Assembly: GCF_003334405.1 (NCBI RefSeq)
Contig: NZ_QOWM01000001.1
Strand: one strand, 5' to 3'
DNA: 64,000 nt
Source: Escherichia coli
Lineage (GTDB): Bacteria; Pseudomonadota; Gammaproteobacteria; Enterobacterales; Enterobacteriaceae
In this document: positions 38,750 through 38,827 of the stretch, piece by piece
How positions within the stretch are numbered: the stretch's first letter is position 1
Layout: each line of letters starts with the position of its first letter
Made by a program: the position numbers and the translations under genes
The notes under the pieces: generated by a model
Database searches by the model: none
Told to the model about the DNA's origin: nothing
What the model saw: the letters and a program-made list of their open reading frames with translations, nothing else

Positions 38750-38763
38750 AACCTCCCTACACC

Positions 38764-38799
38764 GGGGTACTGCATTTTTTTTGTAGTACCCCGTATAAT
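38764..38799 (+). promoter_or_regulatory. Inverted repeat plus candidate -10 (TATAAT) upstream of menF
   Basis: ggggtac...gtacccc inverted repeat around a T8 tract, immediately followed by TATAAT at 38794-38799, ~30 bp upstream of the menF GTG start. Confidence 0.4.
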
Positions 38800-38827
38800 G
38801 TGAGGCTTTTAACAGGGAGAGGTCCGC

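Follow-up and report, generated by a model that had tools for sequence, protein, structure and literature searches.

The inverted repeat between elaB and menF of Escherichia coli is probably the terminal stem-loop of the elaB mRNA, nested in the menF promoter

The stretch of DNA analysed here, referred to as the window, comprises 64,000 nucleotides of an Escherichia coli genome (assembly GCF_003334405.1, contig NZ_QOWM01000001.1). Its genes of interest follow each other in the order elaD (- strand), rbn/elaC (- strand), elaA (+ strand), elaB (+ strand), menF (+ strand) and menD. The elaB coding sequence (38444–38749, + strand) encodes 101 amino acids and ends with the stop codon TAA at 38747–38749. 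The menF coding sequence (38828–40123, + strand) encodes isochorismate synthase and begins with a GTG codon. Both assignments are taken from the list of open reading frames and from the RefSeq annotation of the identical K-12 DNA. The spacer between the two genes is 78 nt long and contains an inverted repeat.

The region 38400–38900 is 100% identical to K-12 MG1655, BL21 and strain C, and it is present as a single copy in 5,422 of the 5,426 complete E. coli genomes. The same holds for the 86-nt hairpin region within it (one copy each in 5,422 of 5,426 genomes). This 86-nt region is unchanged with respect to the window in 4,052 of 5,423 E. coli records, and about one quarter of the genomes thus differ. 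All three variant genomes that were sampled carry A38785C, by which one inner pair of the stem is lost and an 8-bp core is left intact; one of the three has T7 in place of T8.

A first-pass annotation had described the repeat as GGGGTAC-N15-GTACCCC around a T8 tract, with a TATAAT hexamer about 30 bp ahead of the menF GTG codon. All of these elements are present: the two half-sites at 38764–38770 and 38786–38792 with a spacing of 15 nt, the T8 tract at 38775–38782 and the hexamer at 38794–38799, with the GTG codon (38828) following 28 nt after it. The repeat extends beyond this 7+7 core. The full stem has 12 pairs (92% complementary, with one G·U pair) and is built from a left arm, CGGGGTACTGCA (38763–38774, + strand, containing the core GGGGTAC), and a right arm, TGTAGTACCCCG (38782–38793, + strand). 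They enclose a 7-nt loop (38775–38781, + strand), U7 in the RNA, which falls within the T8 tract.

As + strand RNA the hairpin has a predicted free energy of -21.9 kcal/mol, compared with -6.95 +/- 2.15 kcal/mol for 200 dinucleotide shuffles (z = -6.95), none of which folds as well. The corresponding - strand RNA folds less stably (-16.9 kcal/mol, z = -3.8) because the G·U pair turns into an A·C mismatch. The bare pattern GGTAC-N13-17-GTACC is not remarkable on its own: it occurs once in the window where 0.10 occurrences are expected, and at least one copy appears in 9 of 100 shuffles. Stems of at least 11 bp exceed the number expected by chance, with seven distinct ones (11 hits) in the 64 kb compared with 0.9 hits in Markov-1 random sequence, and the elaB–menF hairpin is among them.

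The stem begins 13 nt past the elaB stop codon, and a G+C-rich stem-loop thus closes the transcription unit, as expected for a terminator. A proper U-tract, with about five or more U in the eight nucleotides after the stem, does not follow; the tail UAUAAUGUG contains four U in nine nucleotides. A scan for consensus terminators did not call the hairpin. It returned a weak alternative terminator (38751–38768 followed by ACTGCATTTT), which is excluded by the mapping of the RNA 3' end to 38797, outside the T8 tract. An Rfam scan of 37800–39400 (E <= 10) gave only three chance hits, to eukaryotic or archaeal snoRNA and miRNA families.

The right arm directly abuts TATAAT (38794–38799, + strand), a hexamer that is conserved across the Enterobacterales loci. 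The operon table from SMRT-Cappable-seq (PMC6131387, file 4) places the transcription start of the menF-menD... operon at MG1655 2380664 on the minus strand, which is 38807 (+/- 1 nt) on the + strand of the window. The start site lies 8 nt past TATAAT, within the 6–8 nt expected downstream of a sigma-70 -10 element, which identifies the hexamer as the menF -10. The proposal of the first-pass annotation that the menF promoter resides here is borne out by this published start. No recognisable -35 element is found near the hexamer: TGCATT and CTGCAT match TTGACA at two of six positions (spacing of 17 or 18 bp). An extended -10 TGn is likewise absent, with CCG preceding the -10, and a two-hexamer promoter scan called no menF promoter.

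The -35 region and spacer of this promoter coincide with the hairpin loop and right arm. Relative to the start site the full stem spans about -44 to -14 and GGGGTAC-N15-GTACCCC about -43 to -15, so the repeat does lie over the -35 region as had been noted. The loop occupies the -35 and upstream-spacer position, and the right arm doubles as the promoter spacer. The menF Shine–Dalgarno region, GGGAGAGG (38815–38822, + strand), is located 5 nt ahead of the GTG codon and forms a conserved block in alignment A1. Since menF transcription starts downstream of the hairpin, the hairpin is outside the menF leader RNA. With the structure outside the menF 5' UTR and no credible Rfam match in 37800–39400, the element does not qualify as a menF leader RNA or riboswitch.

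The 3' end of the elaB mRNA has been mapped to the same place. In the Term-seq data of Adams et al. (2021), MG1655 2380674 (minus strand) is listed as the 'primary' elaB 3' end in all three growth conditions (PMC7815308, Supplementary file 1), with 54,112 reads in LB at OD 0.4; a second sheet gives 221,851. The MG1655 coordinate was converted to the window via the printed Term-seq sequence string, which consists of 50 nt, the end itself and 10 further nt. This register was verified with the sgrS row, in which the final U of the terminator falls at position 51. It therefore follows that the elaB mRNA ends ...CCCCGUAUA-3' at 38797 (+ strand), 4 nt past the stem, within TATAAT. SMRT-Cappable-seq of full-length primary transcripts (Yan et al., 2018) also has a TTS at 2380674, labelled 'novelTTS' (PMC6131387). 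As the two published 3'-end maps agree at 38797, the hairpin is the 3'-end structure of the elaB and elaA-elaB mRNAs. The menF start site follows only 10 nt further downstream.

Termination at 38797 is leaky. The elaA-elaB transcript starting at 2381565 is represented by 30 reads, of which 10 end at 2380674 and 16 pass it (PMC6131387), corresponding to a termination of about 38–40% (10 of 26 informative reads). Read-through past 2380674 has a median length of 199 nt, with zero reads ending within the next 50 nt (PMC6131387). This median end falls in a stretch where C exceeds G (38918–38995, C/G = 1.67, above the 95th percentile of the window). An elaA-elaB-menF read-through variant is reported in the same study (PMC6131387), and a few read-through molecules extend across menF. 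Adams et al. also provide a bicyclomycin dataset, a thresholded list, which contains no Rho-termination region in 2,380,2xx-2,380,7xx, within about 400 nt of the site (PMC7815308, Supplementary file 2). The TERMITe supplements do not mention elaB. Both the elaB 3' end and the menF start are thus already contained in published genome-wide tables; our literature search, including a whole-word search for elaB together with menF, found no paper that treats the elaB–menF hairpin itself.

For comparison we collected 80 menF loci from GTDB species genomes and later a further eight via ElaB homologues; Klebsiella was recovered by neither route. In every Enterobacteriaceae locus examined, elaB is located immediately upstream of menF on the same strand. 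A hairpin directly followed by GTATAAT is found at about 52 loci from about 11 enterobacterial genera (Escherichia, Salmonella, Citrobacter, Enterobacter, Lelliottia, Kosakonia, Phytobacter, Trabulsiella, Silvania, Huaxiibacter and Intestinirhabdus). About 22 further loci (Buttiauxella, Cedecea, Shimwellia, Atlantibacter and Franconibacter) have at the same position, ahead of CCACGTATAAT, a terminator hairpin whose tail is T-rich, mostly a T9 run of textbook terminator form. Later look-ups showed Cronobacter and Dryocola to be of this canonical terminator type. The loci of S. bongori, C. koseri and Phytobacter, obtained via ElaB homologues, are of the hairpin type. These later additions together bring no new independent covariation. 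Yersinia and Moellerella lack elaB upstream of menF and have neither hairpin nor terminator. Yersinia nevertheless retains CCCCGTATAAT, and CC(C/A)CGTATAAT is kept in the genera without the hairpin, Yersinia included. All enterobacterial loci that have elaB ahead of menF thus possess one of the two structures, the hairpin or the canonical terminator. From this distribution it follows that the structure travels with elaB and the -10 with menF.

The GGGTACTG core hardly changes across 49 distinct sequences of the hairpin type, and in their alignment the 8-bp core GGGUACUG/CAGUACCC is likewise nearly invariant. The loop sequence varies, yet it is T-rich in all genera and its three central T's are nearly invariant. 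Because both arms hardly change, compensatory covariation is essentially absent from the core stem: covariation contributes 0.1 kcal/mol, and the five pairs with both sides changed are no better than shuffles. Conservation alone is, in such an alignment, unable to tell an RNA function from a DNA function. The mismatches in the stem columns comprise 38 G·U cells and six A·C cells, which are phylogenetically non-independent. This 38:6 asymmetry points to selection on the + strand RNA and is unlike what a protein-bound DNA palindrome would produce. The invariance of the right arm is due in part to the promoter, which keeps CCnCG before TATAAT even where there is no hairpin, and the left arm must presumably match a partner that is unable to change.

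Taken together, the repeat is probably the 3'-terminal stem-loop of the elaB (elaA-elaB) mRNA, the DNA of which is nested in the sigma-70 promoter of menF. Transcripts from the elaA and elaB promoters end at 38797, 4 nt past a 12-bp G+C-rich stem, and menF's own transcripts begin at about 38807 from a consensus -10. The first-pass annotation had taken the element for something other than a terminator. That view is contradicted by two independent 3'-end maps at 38797 and by the canonical terminators at the same place in genera without this hairpin. It was right that the repeat overlaps the menF promoter; the operator that it suggested for the menaquinone genes finds no support, and the hairpin is not part of the menF leader.

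Transcription from the elaA and elaB promoters crosses the elaB stop codon, the stem folds 13 nt later and the RNA ends at about 38797; this much is shown. The hairpin may be a Rho-independent terminator whose U-tract is poor, with UAUAAU, the transcribed -10 hexamer, standing in for a U-run by giving a weak RNA:DNA hybrid. Instead of this, or alongside it, the hairpin could block 3'-to-5' exonucleases as they shorten read-through RNA to the stem. The intrinsic route fits the canonical terminators of sister genera and the fact that no Rho region is listed nearby. The trimming route is in line with the lack of a U-tract, the tail of only 4 nt, the read-through of about 60% and the C-over-G stretch. 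In either case the element would act as RNA of the elaB transcript and not as an operator or menF leader. Any effect on menF is likely to be indirect, with the hairpin limiting the sigma-S-driven elaB transcription that enters the menF promoter.

The element resembles the intrinsic terminators of E. coli in its 12-bp G+C-rich stem, its short loop and a precise 3' end a few nucleotides on, and also in that no Rho region is reported nearby and that textbook terminators are present at orthologous loci. It differs from them in having no U-tract, its tail being the transcribed -10, in a long T-run located in the loop, in stopping only about 40% of transcription and in an end 4 nt from the stem, nearer than is usual for intrinsic termination. 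We count the missing U-tract, the close 3' end and the low efficiency against our explanation, as we do the near invariance of the arms and the occurrence of A38785C in the sampled variants. The promoter in turn is similar to sigma-70 promoters with a weak or absent -35: it has a perfect TATAAT and a start 8 nt on, and its hexamer is kept as far as Yersinia. It is unlike them in that the -35 match is two of six, no TGn is present and the -35 and spacer DNA is taken up by the terminator of the upstream gene.

In a mechanistic variant of this explanation, the polymerase passes the hairpin, Rho releases the RNA about 100–200 nt into menF, and PNPase and RNase II trim it to 38797, so that the stem-loop protects an end it did not create. 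Dar and Sorek (2018) described a class of such protective 3' stem-loops on Rho-dependent transcripts (PMC6061677). The elaB hairpin shares with them a stable stem-loop without a U-tail just before a sharp steady-state 3' end, substantial transcription beyond that end and a C-rich, G-poor stretch downstream. The end only 4 nt from the stem, the 16 of 26 informative reads that continue past the site by a median of 199 nt, and the C/G of 1.67 in 38918–38995, where these extensions end, all agree with trimming. The resemblance is one of structure. The thresholded bicyclomycin dataset lists no Rho region near the elaB hairpin (none in 2,380,2xx-2,380,7xx; Adams et al.), and this absence speaks against Rho release. 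The same is true of the plain intrinsic terminators that sister genera have at this position and of the zero reads ending within 50 nt downstream. We therefore consider trimming as the source of the end a possibility, but a doubtful one.

An operator is a good deal less likely. Here GGGGTAC-N15-GTACCCC would be bound near -30 of the menF promoter by a dimeric regulator, instead of or beside an RNA role. The half-sites are indeed nearly invariant at a fixed spacing of 15 bp in about 11 genera while the flanks and the loop diverge, and the dyad lies across the -35 region and spacer of the menF promoter, in which nothing matches a -35 element. Part of the conservation of the right arm is, however, accounted for by CCnCGTATAAT, which is kept without the hairpin. 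The element is present where elaB lies upstream and does not follow menF, the 38:6 ratio of G·U to A·C is unexpected for a protein-bound palindrome, and the window contains no second copy of the motif. A candidate regulator is SdiA: PmenFDHBCE reporters depend on it in Salmonella (1.8–2.7 fold) and in E. cloacae, where the decrease is about 100-fold and independent of the AHL signal, but the E. coli menF reporter is not regulated by SdiA despite having the same palindrome (PMC11619404). There is no SdiA consensus, and direct binding has been demonstrated solely at pefI-srgC in Salmonella and at the promoters of ftsQAZ and ler in E. coli, with menF not among these sites (PMC12086679). That the palindrome arose by chance, or is a repetitive or mobile element without function, is extremely improbable. 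The minimal 5+5 pattern does turn up in 9 of 100 shuffles, but the full stem has a z of -6.95, is kept across genera while its flanks diverge and sits precisely where an RNA 3' end has been mapped. A repeat or mobile element is ruled out by the single copy per genome in 5,422 genomes.

Read-through RNA may in addition carry a regulatory pairing. The motif CUCCCU (38753–38758, + strand), 4 nt before the hairpin, is a candidate anti-Shine–Dalgarno sequence, being complementary to AGGGAG at 38814–38819. In read-through RNA it would pair with the menF Shine–Dalgarno, and menF would be translated only from its own short transcript. Masking of a ribosome-binding site in a manner that depends on the start site is known from pyrC and pyrD of E. 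coli and Salmonella, in which the longer transcripts pair with the Shine–Dalgarno. The elaB–menF case would differ in that the long form comes from the promoter of another gene via a leaky terminator and that the pairing would bridge about 55 nt, with a hairpin in between. In alignment A1, CUCCCU shows over 90% conservation and keeps its place 4–5 nt before the hairpin, with a distance to the elaB stop that varies from 3 to about 50 nt. A CUCC:GGAG helix appears in the RNAalifold consensus structure.

Several lineages show matching changes upstream and in the Shine–Dalgarno flank: Salmonella (ACCCUCCCU/AGGGAGGGU), Kosakonia (CCCCUCCCUG/CAGGGAGGGG), Trabulsiella (GAACCUCCCU/GGGGAGGUUC), Silvania (CUCCCUGC/GCGGGGAG) and also Phytobacter/UBA3516. 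In the lineages with altered flanks the native duplexes are predicted at -19 to -24 kcal/mol, compared with -14 to -17 kcal/mol for swapped partners, and the native total beats the permuted pairings in 5000 of 5000 cases, in a permutation that ignores phylogeny. Outside Escherichia, the Shine–Dalgarno is predicted to be unpaired with a probability of 0.17 in read-through RNA; the value is 0.52 for RNA that begins at the menF start site and 0.33 when the 5' flank is shuffled. The core pairs themselves never vary, however, which leaves formal covariation at about zero.

In Escherichia the pairing is limited to 6 bp (-11.5 kcal/mol), weaker than swapped controls, and CUCCCU is mutated in two Escherichia lineages (CUCAUU and CUCACC). 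A different outer helix is predicted to dominate there, and the Shine–Dalgarno is predicted to be open, with the masking effect absent (0.51 versus 0.64). This helix, predicted alike in five Escherichia lineages, would form in read-through RNA only. Its 5' strand, GUUAAAACCUCC (38745–38756, + strand; Escherichia only), pairs with GUGAGGCUUUUAAC (38800–38813, + strand; Escherichia), which spans the menF start site. The minimum-free-energy fold of 38745–38830 has -35.5 kcal/mol (z = -4.26). Because of these Escherichia results the anti-Shine–Dalgarno idea is weak for the window and stands as a testable hypothesis for the family; overall we hold it only tentatively, on the basis of predicted pairings.

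We return to the terminal stem-loop of elaB. At this gene boundary the element looks like a leaky terminator or 3'-end stabiliser of an ordinary, compact kind. What could be mistaken for an operator, a conserved palindrome over a -35 region, is the end of the transcript of the previous gene, and a tempting misreading is thereby corrected. The arrangement illustrates how tightly the E. coli genome can be packed: 10 nt separate the 3' end of one mRNA from the next start, the stem lies inside a promoter and the -10 stands in the place of the U-tract. A menF 'promoter fragment' is inseparable from the terminator of elaB, and reporters with and without elaB transcription may therefore differ, which matters for annotation and for synthetic biology. 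It is conceivable, but rather unlikely, that the whole junction is a conserved insulator that reuses its parts, with the stem taken from the promoter spacer, the -10 serving as release signal, CUCCCU masking the menF Shine–Dalgarno in read-through RNA (in most genera, though weakly in Escherichia) and untranslated read-through RNA being left to Rho. If this were true, menaquinone synthesis would be uncoupled from the sigma-S-driven expression of elaB. If the anti-Shine–Dalgarno pairing were to hold in Salmonella, Enterobacter or Kosakonia, translation in these organisms would depend on which promoter made the RNA.

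The menF Shine–Dalgarno sequence (AGGGAG, 38814–38819) is complementary to a conserved CUCCCU (38753–38758) that lies close to the hairpin at the end of elaB, on its upstream side, as seen in the window and among the menF/elaB loci L006–L080 of other genomes. In Salmonella, Kosakonia, Trabulsiella, Silvania and Phytobacter the flanks have also changed, with the changes on the CUCCCU side matching those on the Shine–Dalgarno side. Outside Escherichia, CUCCCU is predicted to mask the menF ribosome-binding site in the read-through RNA, in which elaA/elaB transcripts run past position 38797 into menF.

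In Escherichia the hairpin is surrounded by a genus-specific outer helix formed by 38745–38756 and 38800–38813, with the elaB stop codon lying within one strand and the menF start site within the other. The changes that destroy CUCCCU in E. albertii and Escherichia sp. MOD1 make this outer helix stronger, with CCUCAC or CCUCAU facing GUGAGG. Variation is also found within E. coli itself, where about 25% of complete genomes differ from the window across an 86-nt region. All three variant genomes that were sampled (L082, L083 and L084) carry A38785C, which breaks the U38771–A38785 pair of the stem. In one of them, PE144, T7 replaces the T8 tract (38775–38782), such that the lengths of the loop and of the promoter spacer are both altered by one nucleotide.

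Several loci depart from the common arrangement. In Enterobacter genomosp. O (L052) CUCCCU is replaced by a different sequence, and the elaB–menF gap is longer, with 265 nt past the aligned part of elaB compared with about 140–155 in related Enterobacter loci. The right arm is lost in Enterobacter sp. EA-1 (L077), where the menF match is only 38% identical, and in Metakosakonia (L088) menD follows elaB and no menF is called. A Parasutterella muris contig from a betaproteobacterial assembly (L023) carries an enterobacterial-type menF (69% identity), while a 318 bp contig of Caballeronia mineralivorans (L079) encodes a protein segment that is 100% identical to residues 193–297 of E. coli MenF. 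Assembly contamination or transfer is the likely origin of these last two menF sequences.

The strongest hairpin of the window (35496–35531) has a perfect 16 bp stem, GTTCGACCAGTCAGCA...TGCTGACTGGTCGAAT. On the minus strand it follows the stop codon of elaD at a distance of 16 nt, and it probably serves as the terminator of elaD or as one acting in both directions. Five further hairpins, whose stems reach 11 bp or more (2516–2542, 4771–4795, 13080–13106, 29444–29470 and 62719–62748), are probably the terminators of other genes. Early in menF, the stretch 38918–38995 is C-rich and G-poor, with a C/G ratio of 1.67 that exceeds the 95th percentile of the window. It coincides with the 199 nt median extension of transcripts that pass the elaB 3′ end, and may serve as a Rho loading region.

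A PmenFDHBCE reporter of E. cloacae is changed about 100-fold by sdiA, regardless of AHL signalling; the E. coli reporter is unchanged (PMC11619404). Both reporters carry the element GGGTACTG...CAGTACCC, and the cause of this difference therefore lies in the flanking sequence or in some other place.

In the sister genera Buttiauxella, Cedecea, Shimwellia, Cronobacter (L087) and Dryocola (L089), the place of the E. coli hairpin is taken by a canonical intrinsic terminator with a short stem followed by T8–T9 (at about 1417–1450 in L031 and L051, and likewise in the other loci of these genera). The distance to TATAAT is the same for the T-run of these terminators as for the loop T-run of E. coli, which suggests that the hairpin type arose when the promoter spacer was recruited to form a new right arm.
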